A stretch of DNA of 64,000 nucleotides from Fibrobacterales bacterium (lineage in GTDB: Bacteria > Fibrobacterota > Fibrobacteria > Fibrobacterales > JAOPTW01): positions 32,001 to 96,000 of the forward strand of contig JAOPTX010000032.1 of the NCBI GenBank assembly GCA_051532055.1, given 5' to 3'. Every line of letters starts with the position of its first letter. Positions within the stretch are counted from its first letter, which is position 1. The notes under the pieces are model-generated. The model worked only from the letters and a program-made list of their open reading frames with translations, was not told where the DNA came from and ran no database searches. Position numbers and translations under genes: made by a program. This document shows, in pieces, positions 13,999-24,878 of the stretch.

Positions 13999-15636
13999 TT
14001 AAAAGATATTAACGGTCAAACCAACCTGAGCACCCGGCCACATATACAACCCATCTGCAACATTATAAAACCTACCGTACGAACCACCCCATGGACGAGC
14101 TAAATATATGTGATCAAAATTTGCCAACAGATTTGCCGAAGCACCAAACCAAAAACTCACCCAATTCGTCACATCCACATCAACAATTCCAGACACGCGA
14201 GCAAGAAACTCATCATGGAATTCATTGTCCCATGGTTCCGCATACCAACTAGTAGACTCACCAGCCCCATCAAACCCCATATGGCCATTTGGCTCATAAT
14301 TACAATACAACCAATACCCCTGAAGCAACCCCTTTATTGAATACCAGCCTCTATCACTGCTATACCCCAATCCAACACCACCACTATAGTTCCCCCCAGC
14401 CTTATTATAGGGGTCATAGCCAAAACTTACCATACCAAACCATGGCCCTCTCTCCATACTCACATCTATATACCAAGTACCTAACTCCGAAAATGAACTC
14501 CCGACATTCAAACGATTCTTAATAGAATCACTTTTTGTCTGCAATAATTCTGCACTCACGCTGGTGCTATCAATAATATTTTCAGTAGATACGCCTCCCC
14601 CGCGCAACCGAGTATCTTCAACGGCACTCTCAGTAAAATCTTCCTCACTCAAAATCACTCGCACCACACCCTTTAGATCTGCCGTCGCCTTTTTCCATCT
14701 CGTATCATTCTCAAGGACAACAGTATACACTTCATTAGAAAGCCCCAACTCCACTATTCTTCCTGGAGCCTTATACATCTCGGTAACTAGCGTACCATCT
14801 TTTGACTTTACAAAGATTCTCCCTGCAACATTTTTACCAAAGACAATACCCTTATCATTATTTCTCAGATCAGACATTACAACGTCTCCAGATCCAGATA
14901 GTTTCATATCATAACTCGGGTGTTGCGCCCCACCAGATGTATTTTGTGTTCTATTCAACGTTTCGTTAAAGGCAAACTGATAGGCCTCCCCTAAGGTAAT
15001 TCTCCCATCACGACTCACATCAGCCGCCCCTCGCATACCCGACACAAGATAGTGAGTAAAGAATGAACCACCAATGGCCTCAGATTCTTGAGATGCCTCT
15101 GTATTAGAACTTGAAGTAATAAATGCATAGCCCGAAAGGTCATTTGAGGCATCAACCAAAAAGGCCTGTTTGCGATACCCACCCTTCATTTGTGTTATCG
15201 CCCCCGATGCGCACGCATCAAGAATCGTCACTTTCAGTTGCGCCGGAAGCTTATCAATATCTTTTCTGAGTACTCGATAATCGTAATTATCATTTCCAAA
15301 AAAAAGACCATTCTCATTTGCATGACCTGAAAAATAAAGGACAATCTCCCGCCGATTCTTTGTGGGCAGGCCATCCAAGCGAGCAGACAGATCGGTGAGT
15401 GCACTATTGAATTTTTCGGCACTGGGCTCAAGGAGCATTGTTTGGTTCTCTTTGGGGACACCCCCAATTTCTGTGAGTACCCGGCCAACATTTTGTGCAT
15501 CAGTGTGAGCATATTTTAAGAGGTCTCGTTTTGCACCGCCGTAGTTTACGCCAACTATGATTGCGTATCGCTCAATCTCTTGTAACGCGAAGAGGGATGA
15601 ACAAAGTATTAATATAAGACTTACACCTATTTTCAT
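13999..15636 (-). CDS. exported caspase-family (peptidase C14, metacaspase-like) protease with a C-terminal beta-rich domain
   Basis: Signal peptide; RYAIIVGVN, LKYAHTDA, catalytic YFSGHA and ILDACASG, GSFFTHYLVSGMRGAAD, QHPSY. Confidence 0.9.
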   Translation of the reverse strand: MKIGVSLILILCSSLFALQEIERYAIIVGVNYGGAKRDLLKYAHTDAQNVGRVLTEIGGVPKENQTMLLEPSAEKFNSALTDLSARLDGLPTKNRREIVLYFSGHANENGLFFGNDNYDYRVLRKDIDKLPAQLKVTILDACASGAITQMKGGYRKQAFLVDASNDLSGYAFITSSSNTEASQESEAIGGSFFTHYLVSGMRGAADVSRDGRITLGEAYQFAFNETLNRTQNTSGGAQHPSYDMKLSGSGDVVMSDLRNNDKGIVFGKNVAGRIFVKSKDGTLVTEMYKAPGRIVELGLSNEVYTVVLENDTRWKKATADLKGVVRVILSEEDFTESAVEDTRLRGGGVSTENIIDSTSVSAELLQTKSDSIKNRLNVGSSFSELGTWYIDVSMERGPWFGMVSFGYDPYNKAGGNYSGGVGLGYSSDRGWYSIKGLLQGYWLYCNYEPNGHMGFDGAGESTSWYAEPWDNEFHDEFLARVSGIVDVDVTNWVSFWFGASANLLANFDHIYLARPWGGSYGRFYNVADGLYMWPGAQVGLTVNIF

Positions 15637-15694
15637 ACTGTTCCCTTAGTAATAAAATCGTAATTAAGTTTTTTCTCTATTTTTTTGTGAGCGG

Positions 15695-16477
15695 TCATAA
15701 ATTACTTTTCACCTCACCCTTTACCAACACAATTTTCTCAACTTGAAATATCTCATCTTGAGTGATAGTGTTCAAAATGTTATTTTGATTTACATCCAAA
15801 TACGTGTCAACATCAAAGCTATCTGAACTCAAAACCATATAAAAGATCTCATGAGACGGCGCATCATCAAGTTGGTATGAAAAGGGAAGAAGTCGCTTGA
15901 GAGAACCCAGCTTCACCGAACTTCCATCTTCTTTTGCCAGATGATGAGTCACCACACCATTACCATCAACTGAAAATATCACGCCATGACACTTTTCCGT
16001 TACCACATACTCAAGCTGAAACTCGTCACCCGCACTCACAAGCATACTATCTCTCATAAGACTCGAACCCAACCGTGTCTTTTTGTACACATTAAGCTGA
16101 GCATCTAATCCTTTAATGCGCACAACCTCTGCTGTAGTACTCGTCATTCGACCCTCAAAAGGACTCATTGATTTATAAGTAACCGTCACCCCAAAGGCCA
16201 TAATAAGGGTTACCAATATCCCCTTAGCAAAAGTCACAAATGCAACACCCTTTCTTTTTTTATGGATACTCTTACGGTGAGCACGCTCTTGCCGAATCAC
16301 CCCCTCCATAGCCACATAGGGAAACCGCTCTCTCAGATCATGGTTATTCTGCTCCAACAATACCACACGACGCTGTAATTCTGCATCATTAGAAATTTTG
16401 CTCTTTAACTCCACAGACTCTGACTTCGAGAGATCTCCCAATAAATATTGTTCTAAAGTAAAATCATCATACTTCAT
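15695..16477 (-). CDS. putative membrane anti-sigma factor (ActD-like / DUF4384-like periplasmic domain)
   Basis: N-terminal LEQYLLGDL helical anti-sigma-like domain, one TM, then RIKG, AGDEFQLEY, IFSVDGNGVVTHH, SYQLDDAP; overlaps the sigma gene. Confidence 0.75.
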   Translation of the reverse strand: MKYDDFTLEQYLLGDLSKSESVELKSKISNDAELQRRVVLLEQNNHDLRERFPYVAMEGVIRQERAHRKSIHKKRKGVAFVTFAKGILVTLIMAFGVTVTYKSMSPFEGRMTSTTAEVVRIKGLDAQLNVYKKTRLGSSLMRDSMLVSAGDEFQLEYVVTEKCHGVIFSVDGNGVVTHHLAKEDGSSVKLGSLKRLLPFSYQLDDAPSHEIFYMVLSSDSFDVDTYLDVNQNNILNTITQDEIFQVEKIVLVKGEVKSNL

Positions 16478-16949
16478 AAGTAAATGCCTCCCTCGAAAAC
16501 TCCTGCAATTTCTTTAACCGTTTCCTTACAGCAGGAATTGACATTTTAAAAAACATTGCAACGTCTTCTACCTTCCAGCCATCCCGATAATGCATCACCG
16601 CCATTGCTGCACTTTTTTCATCATTTCGCGATAACACTTTATTCAGAAATGACCTTTCGTTCACAATGGTCAAGGTACACTGCGCATCTGCTATGAGCTC
16701 AAGAGCGGGCTCTTCACACTTTATTTTTGAATCCCTAATCATATTCAATGCTCTATTAGTCGCCATGGTATACAGAAGACTCGAAGGTTGAGTAACATCA
16801 AGAACCTCCCATTTAGTGTGCACTGTCAAGAACGTATCATGCATACAATCCGCCGCCATCTCTTCATTTTTTAACATCGAATAACAACGCCGATATACCA
16901 TCGGACTATACTGTGTATAGAGCTTTTCGAATGTTGTTTTGTTTTTCAT
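16467..16949 (-). CDS. ECF RNA polymerase sigma factor
   Basis: Region 2 (LYTQYSPMVYRRCYSML...AADCMHDTF...LYTMATNRALN) and region 4 HTH (DGWKVEDVA...AVRKRL). Confidence 0.9.
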   Translation of the reverse strand: MKNKTTFEKLYTQYSPMVYRRCYSMLKNEEMAADCMHDTFLTVHTKWEVLDVTQPSSLLYTMATNRALNMIRDSKIKCEEPALELIADAQCTLTIVNERSFLNKVLSRNDEKSAAMAVMHYRDGWKVEDVAMFFKMSIPAVRKRLKKLQEFSREAFTYEV

Positions 16950-17337: not shown

Positions 17338-18855
17338 ATGAAAAAAGTATTACCACTTATAGCAACCGCATCATATGCAGCATTTATGATGTCATGTCAA
17401 ATCATAACACCTACCCCTACAGAAGATCTTTTAAGTAGCTCTGCTATAGCGACTGGGGACAGCACTATCGTTTCATCAGAAACAACACTATCGTCAGCGA
17501 CTGCACTCTCGTCTTCTCCATTTGACACCATTATCATCTCTTTCTCATCTGCCGAACTTTCATCGTCAAGCGAAACTGTAACACCAGAATCAAGCAGCAA
17601 TGTAGTCGTTGTACCTGACTCAACGTTCCTCAGCTCTTCAAGTACAGAACTCTCATCTTCTGAAGTCATCGCACCAAGCTCAACCATAAGTTCATCGATT
17701 GCACTTTCTTCTGCCGAAAGTTCTTCAGCGATTGAGTCTTCATCATCTGTGGTTGTTGTAAGCTCATCTTCCCTAGAAAGCTCTTCTTCTATAGAAAGTT
17801 CATCTTCTGTCAATCCACTTCCTCCCTTTATCAATGCAAACCTTGTTAATGCAATAGACACTGCGACCCCATTTACTAATGGCGCCTCTACTAACTCACT
17901 TTACAGTAGTCAATACGCGGCATGGAAAGCATTCGACAAAGCATCACCTTCTACCCAATGGATATCAGGCCATGTGTTTCGCCCTGGAACAGGCCCTGCA
18001 AACCTCATGTACACCTTTGGTGAAGAACATAAAATTGTTGAATATCGCATCGCAAGCCGCTTTGATTCTCTCAAAGATCGCGCACCAAAAAACTGGGTTT
18101 TACAAGGGTCAAATAGCAACACGGCAACAGCTGCTGATGCAATCGATGACACACAATGGGCTACTATTGACACTCAAAACGACATCAACTCTGGCGACGA
18201 ATGGGGATCAACTGACAACTGGAAAGACACCATCGCATTTACCGTACAAACTCCAGGTATATACACCAGCTACCGCCTTTGTGTAACCGCCGTTAACGGA
18301 TCTTCTGTTGTAGATATTATAGACATGTTCCTCATGGAAGAAGCACACGCCAACATCACCATTCCAACAACTGAAACCGACACCCGCACATCATCAAACG
18401 GTACTTATGGAAGTAGCTATCCAGCATGGCATCTCTTTGACGGCGCATCTACATGGACCCAATGGATGTCAGCAAGTCTCTTTCGCCCAGGAAATGGCCC
18501 TGCCAACATAAGCTACAGCTTCGATGACGAACAAATGGTAACTCACTACACCCTTACCGGTAGATATGACAGCCTTAAAGATCGCCTCCCTAAAAACTGG
18601 ATAGTTCAAGGCACCAATAGTGCCACTGCCACTATCAATGACGCTCTTGATGCCACAACATGGACAACTGTTGACACCCGCACTGACATCACTACTGATG
18701 ACGAATGGAACTCTGAAACAAGCGTTGCCGAACTCACCCTTATGGTTACCAATCCAGGCTCATACACTACCTATAGAATTTGTATTACTGCAGTAAACGG
18801 GTCATCGATTGCTGATCTTATTGAAATCTCATTTGCAGGAATACCTGCCATCTAA
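17338..18855 (+). CDS. lipoprotein with Ser-rich linker and two tandem discoidin/F5-8C-like domains
   Basis: MMSC lipobox; duplicated AW.[AL]FD...TQW.S...PKNW..QG.N...Y..YR.C.TAVNG; AGGA RBS. Confidence 0.75.
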   Translation: MKKVLPLIATASYAAFMMSCQIITPTPTEDLLSSSAIATGDSTIVSSETTLSSATALSSSPFDTIIISFSSAELSSSSETVTPESSSNVVVVPDSTFLSSSSTELSSSEVIAPSSTISSSIALSSAESSSAIESSSSVVVVSSSSLESSSSIESSSSVNPLPPFINANLVNAIDTATPFTNGASTNSLYSSQYAAWKAFDKASPSTQWISGHVFRPGTGPANLMYTFGEEHKIVEYRIASRFDSLKDRAPKNWVLQGSNSNTATAADAIDDTQWATIDTQNDINSGDEWGSTDNWKDTIAFTVQTPGIYTSYRLCVTAVNGSSVVDIIDMFLMEEAHANITIPTTETDTRTSSNGTYGSSYPAWHLFDGASTWTQWMSASLFRPGNGPANISYSFDDEQMVTHYTLTGRYDSLKDRLPKNWIVQGTNSATATINDALDATTWTTVDTRTDITTDDEWNSETSVAELTLMVTNPGSYTTYRICITAVNGSSIADLIEISFAGIPAI

Positions 18856-18878: not shown

Positions 18879-18916
18879 AAAAAGGAGCCTCTCAATTTAT
18901 TGAGAGGCTCCTTTTT
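18879..18916. terminator. bidirectional intrinsic terminator
   Basis: AAAAAGGAGCCTCTCAAT-TT-ATTGAGAGGCTCCTTTTT between convergent genes. Confidence 0.9.
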
Positions 18917-18917
18917 A

Positions 18918-19112
18918 TTACTCTGAACTTTGAACCAATGTCACTTGCTCTAATTCTTCAAAACTCATCTGTATCAATTCATCAATAGAAAAAGAATACC
19001 TCTGTGCATTGATAAAGCCATCTCTCTGCTGTGTATGCAGAGCGCTACACGCCGCAATGATCATCACCACCACAACACATATCATTACTCTATTCACACA
19101 ACACCTTTTCAT
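18918..19112 (-). CDS. small lipoprotein carrying a copy of the TBDR N-terminal motif
   Basis: AGGA RBS, IAAC lipobox, C-terminal SIDELIQMSFEELEQVTL; fills the gap between TBDR stop and terminator. Confidence 0.7.
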   Translation of the reverse strand: MKRCCVNRVMICVVVVMIIAACSALHTQQRDGFINAQRYSFSIDELIQMSFEELEQVTLVQSSE

Positions 19113-19129
19113 TGCATTCCTACATTCAT

Positions 19130-21160
19130 TTAAAAGTTATATCCAATTTTACCCGAAAATTCACGACTAGATCCAGGTAGAGGGGTATCATACCCATCAT
19201 AAGCTTCTGCCATTTCATAATTTTCATTCAAAATGTTATACGCTCCAACGGTAAGACTTACCCTATCAAAGAATACTGACTCCCAATTCAACACTAGATC
19301 AACCATATATACACGGTCAAGTTCTTTGTATTGAAAATCTGGAATCCAATTACCTAGTGCATCATATTCATACCCATAATCAGCCCAGATAGCCGTACGT
19401 TCACCTACGAACCGTAGTGAGGGCGTAATATTGAGCCTATTAAATGCACGATAACTCATGCTGAGTGTTGCTTTATGTTCTGCAATCCCAAGCTTCCTAT
19501 CGGTATTTAATGGGTCTCTAAAATTCTCAGCTACCGAACCCCAGTTTCTCGCAAATGAATAATTTGATATCACACTTATATCTTTCCATTTATAACGAAC
19601 CGACAGTTCTGCACCATAGGAGCCCATACTTTTTGAATTAAGGTATAGATTTTGTTCAGCACCAGCATCCCATGTATAGATAATTGCATCACGTATTTGC
19701 ATCCAAAAAATATTTCCCTGAATCCATAAATCACCCATAGGATGGTACCCGAGTTCCGCTTCAGTTATCCAGGTAAATTCCGGCTTTATGTCTGGATTTG
19801 TCGCTACATTTAATATCGCTGGATCCCGTTGAGCCCCACTGAGCAATAATTTTAAATCCAGGTCATTTGTCATAGATCCAGTATAAGCAAGCCGAGGTAC
19901 TATAGAATTTCCATAATTCTCATTATTATTTCCTCGAACTCCTGCGGTAAATGTACCAACACCCGTACGAGCAATCAGCTGCGCGTACAACGCTCCAGTA
20001 TAGCTATCAGTATAATTATCCCCATTATAGGTAGAACTCAAGTAATCCCTTCCTATTATAAAATCATATGTAATCCCCGACAACAATTTAACATCATCAT
20101 TAATATCAACATCTACAGGTATATCCAGTGAGTATTTTTCACTACGGTCATCAATCTGCCAATCAGCATACACTGACCCATCAGAATACAACACCTCATT
20201 CGCATTCCAAGGCTTCTGTTGCTTGTATTGTATGGCCGGGTTCAACCTCAATGACGGAGATATATCCAATAAATAACTGACCTTCGCAGCATAACTGATA
20301 AACTCTGTATGATAATCAGGTACATCATATGTTGGATAAGGAAACTGGATATAATAATTATCATAGAATGCATTGATTGTAAATCCTCCGTATTCTGCCT
20401 TAACTAAAGCATTTGAAACTTTAGTCGACCCATTATCATCGTCGCTCAGATCTATATTTGCACCATATATATCATGTAGCGTTCTATCCGAATAATTCCC
20501 TTGCTCCATGCTTATAAAGGCAGAAACATTCCCCTTCTCACTCTTTGTACCAAGAAAAACATTACCGCCAGTGCGTCCTGTCATTTTTTCTGTTCTAGAA
20601 TAATATCCATTTGCATTCACATTGAGTTCTTTTGATGGATTTTTAGTTATTACCGACACAACAGCCATCTCTGCAGCCCCACCATATTGCACAGACCCAG
20701 GGCCCCGGATAATTTCAACACGCTCTATCATATCTGCACTAAAATGTTGTCCAAATGCAATTGACGCATACATTTCATCATTTACATCTATACCATCAAT
20801 AAGGAGAAGAACCTTTCCTTCACTCGCCCAATTACCCCGTATTGCAACCGAACGAACCCCTTGTAAATCCAATAAGAATTCAAAGCCAGGCACAAATTGC
20901 AATATCTCTTTTAAATCACGCAAGCCTCTTCTTTTAATCTCTTCACTGGTAACAACCGTTACAATTCCCGGTGATTCTCGCTGCGTTAGTGCGAACCCTC
21001 CTGACGCTACATTAATTGACAAATTCATAAGAACATCTAAGTCCATCTCTATGAGGTCATCCAAAGAAACGTCCTCCACCCTAATATTATCTACTTCTTG
21101 CCCCATAAGTGAAGTGGCCACAAGTAAGGTAGCTGCAATAGCGTGCACCAATTTATTCAT
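19130..21160 (-). CDS. TonB-dependent outer-membrane receptor
   Basis: Plug motifs ESPGIVTVVT, LLLIDG, IERVEIIRGPGSVQYG; C-terminal NILNENY...PGSSREFSGKIGYNF; likely start ATG 21160 overlapping the kinase stop. Confidence 0.92.
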   Translation of the reverse strand: MNKLVHAIAATLLVATSLMGQEVDNIRVEDVSLDDLIEMDLDVLMNLSINVASGGFALTQRESPGIVTVVTSEEIKRRGLRDLKEILQFVPGFEFLLDLQGVRSVAIRGNWASEGKVLLLIDGIDVNDEMYASIAFGQHFSADMIERVEIIRGPGSVQYGGAAEMAVVSVITKNPSKELNVNANGYYSRTEKMTGRTGGNVFLGTKSEKGNVSAFISMEQGNYSDRTLHDIYGANIDLSDDDNGSTKVSNALVKAEYGGFTINAFYDNYYIQFPYPTYDVPDYHTEFISYAAKVSYLLDISPSLRLNPAIQYKQQKPWNANEVLYSDGSVYADWQIDDRSEKYSLDIPVDVDINDDVKLLSGITYDFIIGRDYLSSTYNGDNYTDSYTGALYAQLIARTGVGTFTAGVRGNNNENYGNSIVPRLAYTGSMTNDLDLKLLLSGAQRDPAILNVATNPDIKPEFTWITEAELGYHPMGDLWIQGNIFWMQIRDAIIYTWDAGAEQNLYLNSKSMGSYGAELSVRYKWKDISVISNYSFARNWGSVAENFRDPLNTDRKLGIAEHKATLSMSYRAFNRLNITPSLRFVGERTAIWADYGYEYDALGNWIPDFQYKELDRVYMVDLVLNWESVFFDRVSLTVGAYNILNENYEMAEAYDGYDTPLPGSSREFSGKIGYNF

Positions 21161-23954
21161 TAATTTCATTTTCATGATCATCCTCATTTTCTTCTGCTCT
21201 GTTACGCTTTTCCAATTTCTTAAGCTCTATAATCTTTAACCACTTCTCTAACGTTTTAATAACCGAAACTGAATTAATTGGTTTTGGTATGTAATCATCC
21301 ATGCCTGCATCGAGACACTTCTCTTTATCGCCTTCCATTGCGTTCGCTGTCATTGCTATAATGGGCAACTCCGGGTTTAAAATATCTACACCTTTTTGTC
21401 GAATAACCCGTGTTGCCTTATATCCATCCATTATAGGCATCTGGACATCCATAAAAATCAAATCGTATTCTTTCTCTTTGAGAAGCTGTAATGCCTCTTC
21501 GCCATTACCTGCAATATCAGGAACAATACCCGCTTTTTTCAATACACCTATAGCCACTTTTTGATTTATTTTATTATCCTCAACCAACAAGAGACGCACG
21601 CTGGACCGAATATTTTTACTGATACTGTACTGAGTAATAATCTCTTTCTTCTTAGTGTTCCCTGGATCGACTTCGAGACCCAATGCCTCTTCTAAGCATT
21701 CATGAAGTTCACGCGCAAGAACCGGTTTAGTTAAATAGGCCGCAAAACCCATTTCTGAAAGTCGACTTACATCACCACGCTTCCCCATCGAACTCATCAT
21801 AATCAGAATAGTATCTGCAATTTCTGGGTCATTTTTAATTGCCTCACCAACCATTTCCCCATCCATTCCCGGCATCTGCATATCCAGAATTGCCACAGTA
21901 TATGGACTCCCTTTCTGCTGCGCCTCCTTTAACATAGCAATTCCAGCGGGGCCACTTTCAGAAACATCGCAGGTTACATTCCAGGCACCCAACTGTTTTT
22001 CAACTACCTTTCTATTCGTGTGATTATCATCTATGAATAGAATTTTTTCACCTTCAATATCTTTTCGATGAGCAGGAGTATAGTGTTTATCCGATTTATT
22101 CAACTCGATAGTAAACCAAAAGAGTGACCCTGTTGAACCATTATGACGACACACTTCTGAACCATGCTCTACAGGGCTCTCTACCCCTATCTCGCCATTC
22201 ATTAAAGCCACAAGCTGTTTCGAAATGGCGAGACCAAGACCAGTACCCCCAAATTCTCGGGTCGTTGAACTATCTGCCTGAGTAAATTTTTCAAAGAGCA
22301 TCTCTTGTTTTTCTTTAGGAATACCAATCCCTGTATCCCGGACCCCAATTCTTAACCGAATCGCACTTCCAATATCTTCCTCAAATTGGATACAAACAAT
22401 GACTTCACCCTGTTCTGTAAACTTAATAGCATTACCCGTAAGGTTTGTAACCACTTGTCTCAGGCGTCCTGGATCACCTTTTACATAGACGGGTACTTCA
22501 TTATCGATGCTACAAATAAATTCAACACCTTTTTCATCTGTCCTAAAGGCCATAGTATTTGCAAAACTTCCCAGCATTGAATGGAGATCAAAATCTATCT
22601 CTTCGAGGTCCAACTTGCCCGCTTCAATTTTTGAGAAATCAAGGATATCATTAATGATGGATAGGAGTGACTCGGCACTACTATGTACCGACTCTGCATA
22701 CCCTCTCTGCTCATTATCCAATGATGTATCGAGAAGTAATTCATTCATACCTAGAACTCCATTCATTGGAGTTCTAATCTCATGACTCATTGTTGCAAGA
22801 AAATCACTCTTGGCTCTACTTGCAGCCTCTGCCGCTTCAGTCTGTTCAACAAGAAATTTATTGAGGTCACGAATACGTTTTTCTTCAGTGAGATCCATAA
22901 AGACAAACACAACCCCCGTCACCACTCCCTGATCGTTGCGTATGGGGGCCCCGCTATCACTCATAAACTTTACGTCACCACGAGGCGTTAGAATCACTGT
23001 TTGATTTGAAAGTTTTGTTATAACACCTGCCCTCAATACTATTCCTACTGGGTCAGCGATCCGCTCCCTCGTCGTTTGGTTTTCTAGGGTCAATACCTCA
23101 TCAAAAAAGAGACCTTTTGATTCATCTATTTTTAAACCCACAAGTTCTTCTGCTGCAGGATTCATTCGCTCTATTATGCCTTTAATATTTGTGGTAATAA
23201 CCGATTCACCGAGGGAATCAAGAGTCGTACGCAAGTCACGTTCTTGCTCCTCAAGTTCAACTTTTGCATCATGTATAGTGTCCATGAGTGCATTAAAGTT
23301 GTCATAGAGCACCCCTATCTCATCCGTACTCTCTTTTTCAATATGTCGTGACTCATGCTCTCCTCTAGATAACTGTTCCATAAACTGAACAAGTTTTATA
23401 ATTGGAGCCGTTACTGATCGCTGTAATATATAGGCAAGAAGAAGACTCCCACACACAAGTCCCAATAATAAGAGCAACAAGGTCATGATATTTGATCTGT
23501 TTTCGGCATCCATTTTATTCGTTGAAGCAACAATATAAACCAACCCTATCCGTTGCTCTTGCTCAAAAATTGGATAGAACATGTGGAGTTCATCTTCTTC
23601 AAACCGATGTCCCGCCTGTATGTTTTTCTTCCCCTTGGGAAATTCGACATCGCCTCGGATATATTCAGAAAATACCGTAGAGTCCGCCGTATAAACGAGT
23701 ACTCGCTCAATCACATCAATTGATTCCATCGAATTGAGGTAGCTTTGAGCCACTTCACTATCATCAAACATCAAGGGAACGGTCACATATCGGCTGACCA
23801 CTTTTGCTTGTTCCATTATTGAGTTAACAAAATTGTTTCTTAAATTGGTGGCACTACGAATACTCAGTACCGTAAAACCAAGAGAAAGAGTCACAAAACT
23901 GATCCCCACTATGATCAGTAATAACTTTTTCCGTATAGAGATATTACGAATCAT
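21153..23954 (-). CDS. hybrid sensor kinase (YfiN-like periplasmic-HAMP-PAS-HisKA-HATPase-REC-REC)
   Basis: [38 protein letters not shown], two receiver domains (LDMQMP, MDVQMP). Confidence 0.93.
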
Positions 23955-24506
23955 TTATCGAGCCCCCTGCATTTTTTTGAGATAACTCAAAAGGAAGGAA
24001 CTTGCCTTAAGCCCCGAAGCCGCCATAGCCCCGGTATTCATATTAAAACGAACTTTATTATTCTCCTTGTAAAGCAGTACGTGCGCCCCCTTGTCTAATA
24101 ACTCGGGGTTTTCAGTAACAATAAGTGCATGATACTGCTTGTTTTTCTCAAGAAGAAGGTCAAAATCACTCTCACTTTTGGGAGCAATATAAATGACATG
24201 TGCCGTAAAAATAGAATCAACCAAAGAAAGTTTTTGGACCGTTGTTACCCTTTTTTTGATGGTACGACCTTCCATAGCCTTTTCAATCCAAGAAGAAAGA
24301 GGGGAGTCTCCTAATATAAATACGCTAAATTTGTCAGTTTGATCACTCTCGCTCCAAGTAATTAAGGAAACAACCTTTATGAGATAAGCTGCTTTAAGCT
24401 TATTTTCACCTGAATTTTGGCCGAAACTTGTTGAAAATGCCAATAACACTACAATGAGTAGTATGACTCCTCGTGAGTGAGGTTTTTTCTTAAAGTATCC
24501 GTTCAA
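23955..24506 (-). CDS. YfiR family (DUF4154) periplasmic protein
   Basis: ENKLKAAYLIKVVSLITW, HVIYI, KVRFNMN, GLKASSFLL; probable TTG start at 24506 after AGGA giving a signal peptide; stop abuts the kinase ATG. Confidence 0.82.
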   Translation of the reverse strand: MNGYFKKKPHSRGVILLIVVLLAFSTSFGQNSGENKLKAAYLIKVVSLITWSESDQTDKFSVFILGDSPLSSWIEKAMEGRTIKKRVTTVQKLSLVDSIFTAHVIYIAPKSESDFDLLLEKNKQYHALIVTENPELLDKGAHVLLYKENNKVRFNMNTGAMAASGLKASSFLLSYLKKMQGAR

Positions 24507-24878
24507 ACAGTATCCTAATAGAGCGGGTAGAATTCTTGGATATTTTACCAAACATTTCTCAATAAATGCCAATTTTAGCCCATATTCTCTAAAATACCCC
24601 ACATTGCTTACCTTTAACAAGCATATAATAGGCTTTAAACATTTTTCCCTATCAGAAAGGACCCCTGTAACACTCTAGCATCTTTCTAGTATTTCCTTGA
24701 ATTTCAACGATTTATGCTCACCATACAGCGGTAACAAATTGTGAACGACCAATGCAATGTAAGCTAGATTTAACTATGCCCCCCTTCCTAATTATGCTAT
24801 TTTTGAATTACTATCTAATAACCGTGGATCTCAGTCCTATTTCTCACCCCTTAAGAGAGTCCACATTAAGGAGAATCT

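Follow-up and report, generated by a model that had tools for sequence, protein, structure and literature searches.

The last gene of a YfiR-like (DUF4154)/CHASE8 hybrid kinase/TonB-dependent receptor (TBDR) operon is a small open reading frame (ORF) that we confirm as a real, conserved gene. As judged from alignments, the C-terminal part of its product has a real but partial likeness to the adjacent receptor's N-terminal tail, and modelling predicts that the peptide binds the YfiR encoded in the same operon. Because the small gene combines a copy of the receptor motif with predicted YfiR binding, it likely tunes the signal of the operon. The reading that we prefer, at a probability of roughly 0.5, is that the peptide would serve as a membrane-tethered YfiR sink. 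The window, by which we mean the whole 64,000-nucleotide stretch of DNA that was analysed, comes from source DNA contained in marine sequencing runs. Features are collected in Table 1, where G001 is a genome of the same genus.

Table 1. Small gene, its parts, its operon neighbours and porin-like carriers of the motif (positions in the window unless a locus is named)
Feature	Position	Strand	Evidence or remark
Small ORF, predicted lipoprotein, 64 aa	18918..19112	-	Receptor-type N-terminal motif; orthologue in G001; third member P0133
AGGA, Shine-Dalgarno-like	19118..19121	-	5 nt before ATG; AGGT at equivalent site in G001
Residues 1-22: basic start, hydrophobic stretch, IAAC lipobox-like site	19047..19112	-	Cys22 in 3/3 members
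Residues 23-40: linker of variable sequence and fixed length	18993..19046	-	Lowest pLDDT in peptide model
Residues 41-64: two short helices (43-48, 51-55) and strand-like tail; predicted YfiR-binding part	18921..18992	-	G001 conservation, model
Hairpin, 17 bp, T runs on both strands	18879..18916	.	Begins at small-ORF stop
TonB-dependent receptor, 685 aa, Plug and barrel	19130..21187	-	PF07715; NF053590 below cut-off
Receptor residues 40-63: helices 42-46 and 50-54, then LSINVAS	20999..21070	-	AlphaFold model; LSINVAS is the likely TonB box
Hybrid sensor kinase, 933 aa, CHASE8-HAMP-PAS-HisKA-HATPase-REC-REC	21153..23954	-	Domain matches; NF053592 below cut-off
YfiR-like periplasmic protein (DUF4154)	23955..24506	-	PF13689, E 1.4e-26
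Plug-less porin-like proteins	L269:4329-5684; L268:5823-7280	-; + (split)	Pfam Porin_O_P only at E 0.093; no A2 match

The small ORF starts with an ATG 17 nt downstream of the TBDR stop codon. The AGGA ahead of this ATG bears out the original prediction of a separate ribosome-binding site; AGGA is found upstream of 393 of the 1763 long-ORF starts in this genome. The same prediction held that the ORF was small enough for annotation to miss, which proved wrong, as the gene caller finds it as the 59-aa P0001 starting at a GTG. A Pfam search of the 64-aa peptide gave no match at E 0.1. A six-codon mini-ORF [19109-19129 (-); L007 1477-1497 (-) in G001] begins right after the receptor stop in the two genomes, and its TGA overlaps the small-gene ATG in both, as might result from translational coupling or from chance. 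The lipobox-like site IAAC22 has Ala at -1, as do 42 of 328 lipoprotein-like starts in this genome. The canonical form occurs in the source genome only, and the other two family members have TTC, with Thr at -1 (2 of the 328 starts). The earlier claim of a lipobox holds for the Cys, present in every member, but only one of the three sites is canonical; from its sequence, the protein is likely lipidated and membrane-anchored.

The hairpin that follows the gene (-31.2 kcal/mol, z -7.95) was matched by none of 200 shuffles. It is likely a two-way terminator common to the operon of the small ORF and the convergent gene at 17338-18855; a consensus scan does not have it in its list. That the ORF ends at the operon terminator, as had been claimed, is thus supported in the window but not in G001, in which a 269-aa LRR lipoprotein-like gene [L007:288-1097 (-)], absent from the window, separates the small ORF from the next hairpin. 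RNA gave no evidence of expression: the small ORF contains one unstranded 151-nt contig (depth 2), but coverage is similar in 24 of the region's 30 bins. Run X3 was covered for only a small share.

The AlphaFold model of the receptor (pLDDT 91.6) has a BtuB/PirA-like fold. By alignment offset, its LSINVAS occupies the position of BtuB residues 6-12, which we take to be the BtuB TonB box. The profile of the YfiR-like protein matches P. aeruginosa YfiR chains (E 8e-13), and its gene likely starts at the TTG at 24506 after an AGGA, rather than at 24620 as in the ORF listing. Compared with G001, the receptor is 94% identical, the kinase overall 90%, YfiR 78%, and the CHASE8 region 75%, so that YfiR and the CHASE8 region diverge faster than the kinase overall or the receptor. 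Elsewhere in the window, an ECF-type sigma factor, a putative anti-sigma factor, and a caspase-domain (Peptidase_C14) protein form one run at 13999-16949 (-); a lipoprotein-like gene comes after this run, which is kept in G001. At another site of the source genome [G000:C13:32126-34852 (L005)], a 901-aa signalling protein has a YfiR-like domain fused to its N-terminus; its gene directly follows that of a motif-bearing receptor near a tonB gene, and the same arrangement is found in G001.

The gap-free match between the peptide (SIDELIQMSFEELEQVTL) and the receptor N-terminus (SLDDLIEMDLDVLMNLSI) that had been claimed can be read from the sequence. Taken alone, this pair is weak, in that the neighbouring receptor ranks 30th of 6209 frames in a search with a 3-member peptide profile, and the match is significant as a set. 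Five of the ten motif-bearing receptors of the genome fall within the top 62 of these frames, each of them in register (p 2e-8). Of 272 unique receptor N-termini, 23 reach a score of at least 25, compared to a mean of 0.26 (maximum 2) in 100 shuffles. In the AlphaFold models, the two helices of the receptor (pLDDT 70-80) and of the peptide (80-88) are likewise in register. The peptide also shows the hydrophobic/acidic helix pattern of the (L/M)S(L)EEL type that is used to recognize the N-terminus of trio-type TBDRs. It has no Plug domain or barrel, because a stop codon follows 24 residues after the motif start in 3/3 members; by its sequence, the small protein is not a receptor fragment.

The likeness has limits. 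The peptides keep six of eight conserved hydrophobic receptor columns and lose two together. One of these has an acid in the peptides compared to a hydrophobic residue in 103/115 receptors; the other, the box valine that ends V-A-S, is Gln, Gln, and Tyr in the three members compared to hydrophobic in 113/115 receptors (counts are for 115 of 120 rows, anchored on the TonB box). A shift of one residue off register would retain an L-V in the peptide tail. The loss of the two hydrophobic columns accounts for the low scores of two peptides (-0.8 and -23.7, compared to 32.7 for the receptor) against a receptor-built matrix that includes the box, and a search with only the G001 peptide hardly recovers any receptors. 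In the peptide, the motif begins at residue 41, compared to 40 in the receptor, and 39 of 72 bases match within the motif, compared to 41 of 117 upstream. The start offset and the matching motif bases fit an old duplication of the receptor 5' end, from which the small gene probably arose.

The motif is composed of 8-residue units, and some receptors (P0021, P0063, P0070, P0098, P0109, and P0119) have three or four tandem units before the box. At tandem-unit loci L208, L209, L212, L214, L136, and L134, a YfiR-like gene is directly upstream; at L041 and L060, no YfiR-like gene is present in the fetched flanks.

The original prediction named YfiR or TonB as the partner of the motif. We modelled mature YfiR (alignment of 73 rows) together with the mature peptide (3 rows), using a mark of 0.32 and three controls. 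The complex, whose modelling had been suggested as a check, passed at 0.72 (0.75, 0.72, and 0.71 in separate runs), compared to 0.31 for the best control. In a benchmark, 116 of 157 solved pairs and 2 of 215 mismatched pairs scored at or above the mark, which is a rough guide only for custom alignments such as these. The runs agreed in at least 89% of contacts, with a partner pLDDT of at least 59. On the peptide side, the predicted interface includes F41, I43, L46, I47, M49, F51, L54, E55, and V57-Q61, and so takes in five of the eight invariant motif residues (I43, L46, F51, L54, and V60). On the YfiR side, it is formed by helix 1 and strand 121-124, which aligns with residues 158-161 of P. 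aeruginosa YfiR. In the available text of the structural report, Ile160 of that protein is on strand beta7, on which YfiB stacks in the crystal (PMC4655355). The likeness to the solved YfiB-YfiR strand pairing, with a shared edge strand plus helix 1, implies that memory of that structure may be responsible for some of the score. Compared with G001, 15 of 17 YfiR interface residues are identical, against 120 of 154 overall, but across the alignment the predicted interface columns show no higher conservation than the others (15 versus 127 columns, p 0.22). From these models, the small peptide is predicted to bind the YfiR of its operon.

Binding of YfiR by the receptor's own tail, which a decoy would presuppose, is not mirrored in gene neighbourhoods. 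A YfiR-like gene is present in 73 of 158 related receptor loci, so the receptor/YfiR-like/sensor trio is common, and it is catalogued. Among loci with full flanks (4 kb on each side), receptors that have a YfiR close by do not differ in motif score from those that lack one (34 versus 32 loci, medians 22.3 and 16.9, p 0.56). All ten such receptors in the genome carry the motif and four adjoin a YfiR, the context of two of the other six being cut off. The five YfiR domains of the genome could act in trans on receptors that have no adjacent YfiR.

That all ten receptors carry the motif, most of them with no YfiR beside them, speaks for a rival reading in which the peptide is a TonB decoy, whose tail would act as a free TonB box and damp TonB-dependent uptake or signalling. 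The tail lies at the position of the receptor's TonB box, if the BtuB box is where we take it to be, and it keeps the L-V one position off register. Moreover, according to the accessible portion of one study, TonB-box activity depends more on secondary structure than on side chains (PMC11658791). The same portion reports, however, that V11D in the FhuA box abolishes energy-dependent functions (PMC11658791), and it is the box valine that is missing from all three members in the gap-free register, which makes TonB the less likely partner. A TonB decoy also leaves the conserved helices unexplained. Finally, plug-less porin-like proteins of about 450 aa begin with the same helix motif and have no V-A-S box, which implies that the motif helix can exist apart from TonB. 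We consider a TonB decoy unlikely. Thus, of the two partners first named, YfiR gains from the complex prediction and TonB loses ground.

A second alternative, to which we give no more credence than to the TonB decoy, is that the peptide attaches, on the periplasmic side, to its own receptor, either adding helical repeats in trans to the receptor tail or locking the plug, as the phage T5 lipoprotein Llp does with FhuA. Upstream tandem units of receptors are among the best matches to the peptide, the small gene directly follows the receptor gene, and Llp shows that a small lipoprotein is able to jam a TBDR (PMC9586334, in its available part). Against such binding, the peptide is 38% identical between the two genomes and the receptor 94%, YfiR and the CHASE8 region being proteins that also change faster. 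Pfam and solved-structure searches found no sequence or fold link of the peptide to Llp or Cor-type proteins, and no match of any kind for its model among solved structures, although a model of 42 residues searches poorly.

It is rather improbable that the acidic amphipathic helices belong to a small membrane peptide that acts on some unrelated target, for example the CHASE8 domain of the kinase, and resemble the receptor tail by chance. Chance likeness would account for the 29 frames that outrank the neighbour in the 3-member profile search, only two of which are receptors and 27 of which are not. It would also fit the score of the peptide with an unrelated protein, the control at 0.31 that came within 0.01 of the mark. 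By contrast, it does not explain the enrichment of receptor N-termini as a set and in register, the equal offset of the motif from the start codon, or the position of the gene in the operon.

Of 40 relatives searched, G001 alone has the receptor. The original prediction would have failed if there were no homologues at similar loci, and G001 provides an orthologue of exactly 64 aa at the equivalent position. It is one of two homologues in the small family, which are 38% (24/64 residues, G001) and 34% identical to the peptide. The third member, the 62-aa P0133 (E 2.5e-8), came from a search of 1.84 billion representatives with a 2-member HMMER profile, which gave five matches: the two members themselves, P0133, P0132, and P0134. 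P0132 and P0134 are long repeat proteins and were rejected as noise. All three members align without gaps, with the Cys, a 19-residue spacing from Cys to motif, and the stop 24 residues past the motif start, and the small gene is directly downstream of the trio in both genomes of known context.

The family is rare and tiny, with three members. It was found by the 2-member profile in 2 of 296 genomes of the phylum, leaving 294 with no copy; the 3-member profile gave 11 further matches (E 0.005-0.04) in phylum genomes, about the number expected by chance. A search for small motif ORFs near related receptors came up empty, with no stand-alone motif ORF in the 158 related receptor loci or in a set of 237 loci. 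The absence of the small gene from the 158 loci and the 294 genomes implies that the trio works without it. A metagenome scan with the receptor alone showed the small gene in none of 151 candidates, and a word-index search with the peptide alone returned only the self-match. ESM Atlas matches were all under 0.9 and are leads only. In 653 genomes of other groups, 74 matches were found, five in frames of <300 aa; all five were rejected as broken receptor or porin genes, or noise.

Divergence from G001 is uneven along the gene. The second codon position is unchanged in 24/24 motif codons, 19/21 signal codons, and 9/19 linker codons. The motif keeps 14 of 24 residues (dN 0.23, dS 0.60), compared to 2 of 19 in the linker counted from residue 22 to 40 (dN 1.35, dS 0.85). 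In simulations of random divergence of equal size, 14/24 motif identities were reached in 0.3% and the frame stayed open in 6%. These comparisons show selection on the small gene, apparently confined to its signal and motif. That the gene is a decaying leftover from duplication of a receptor 5' end, without any role today, as the near-equal motif starts, the matching motif bases, the much faster evolution of the peptide than of its neighbours, the 6% chance of an open frame, and the short frames that broken receptor genes leave elsewhere might suggest, is very unlikely, given that three members have no indel from Cys to stop, keep every second codon position of the motif, and share changes away from the receptor consensus as well as a Cys that is absent from the receptor.

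Proteins other than receptors also carry the motif. Among proteins of 11-112 aa, the motif profile matched 9 of 167 candidates, two of which are receptor fragments. Six others (P0122-P0127, 71-99 aa, from ENA, NCBI, and JGI) begin with a hydrophobic segment, carry two tandem motif copies, and end alike right after the second copy. These six form a second, separate small family of stand-alone tandem-motif proteins, and P0128 may represent a third kind. Neither P0122-P0128 nor P0133 had a match among plasmids.

In the YfiR-sink reading, the lipid anchor would tether the peptide in the periplasm, where its C-terminal two helices and strand would imitate the tail of the neighbouring receptor and hold part of the YfiR pool independently of ligand, as a constant sink. 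The receptor's own tail would bind YfiR at the same site, using its TonB-box strand; since the strand paired with YfiR is the receptor's TonB box, YfiR and TonB would compete. By extension from Pseudomonas, where YfiR represses YfiN, the YfiR-like protein would repress the CHASE8 kinase, and its removal would release the kinase by analogy with YfiBNR (PMC4655355, available text). By holding YfiR, the peptide would therefore raise the resting activity of the kinase or set the threshold for receptor signals. Of the decoy first proposed, a membrane-tethered protein that titrates the partner of the motif, the relation of the motif to the receptor tail and a predicted contact with YfiR are supported, and titration itself is a proposal.

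More tentatively, YfiR-like proteins may generally use the helical tail and the TonB-box strand of receptors as a docking site, with YfiR and TonB competing for one strand and ligand binding being passed to the kinase; the tail would then have been cut loose at least twice as a stand-alone tethered protein that sets the threshold, in the small lipoprotein family and in P0122-P0127. If true, this would be a new, sigma-factor-independent mode of signalling by TonB-dependent receptors. Literature searches, which mostly excluded subscription papers and supplements, found nothing on how the trio works or on a peptide of this kind. With a natural 24-residue version of the receptor tail that selection has preserved and that is predicted to bind YfiR, the step across the periplasm could be tested directly and cheaply.

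The three upstream genes of the operon match the NCBIfam models NF053590 (TBDR), NF053591 (YfiR-like), and NF053592 (kinase), but all three score below the curated cut-offs, and none of the related loci showed a fourth small gene. Phage T5 Llp is likewise a small periplasm-facing lipoprotein linked to a TonB-dependent transporter; Llp, however, is described in the accessible part of PMC9586334 as a phage exclusion protein, whereas the small gene is chromosomal and lies in the operon of the receptor. Like the TonB box of TBDRs and colicins, the peptide tail lies where the box would be and, in the prediction, pairs as a beta strand, but the last box valine is replaced in 3/3 members and no plug or cargo comes after the tail.

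The closest parallel is YfiB of the YfiBNR system of P. aeruginosa (HmsCDE in Yersinia). Here too, in both genomes with context, the gene of a predicted lipoprotein accompanies those of a YfiR/DUF4154 protein and an inner-membrane sensor of the CHASE8-HAMP type, and the peptide is predicted to pair with the YfiR edge strand that corresponds to beta7, as YfiB does in the crystal (PMC4655355, as far as available). In contrast to YfiB, of about 143 mature residues, the peptide has 42; it has no OmpA-like peptidoglycan-binding domain, only two short helices in its model, and is therefore not a YfiB family member. Its sequence relates to the receptor tail and not to YfiB, and the output of its operon is a hybrid kinase instead of a diguanylate cyclase. 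Its predicted contacts centre on YfiR helix 1, while YfiB, in the available text, contacts YfiR nowhere outside the C-terminal region, and the region of YfiB's N-terminal helix alpha1' (Leu35, Ser36, Ala37, Glu38, Ile40, and Leu43) blocks YfiR binding (PMC4655355). This helix has a similar L-S-x-E start, which is probably a generic helix cap. The early description of the peptide as a minimal functional analogue of YfiB accordingly keeps the support of its operon context and predicted YfiR contact but implies no family membership, and the small protein may at most work like YfiB. If the YfiR-sink reading is true, it would be such an analogue derived from the receptor itself.
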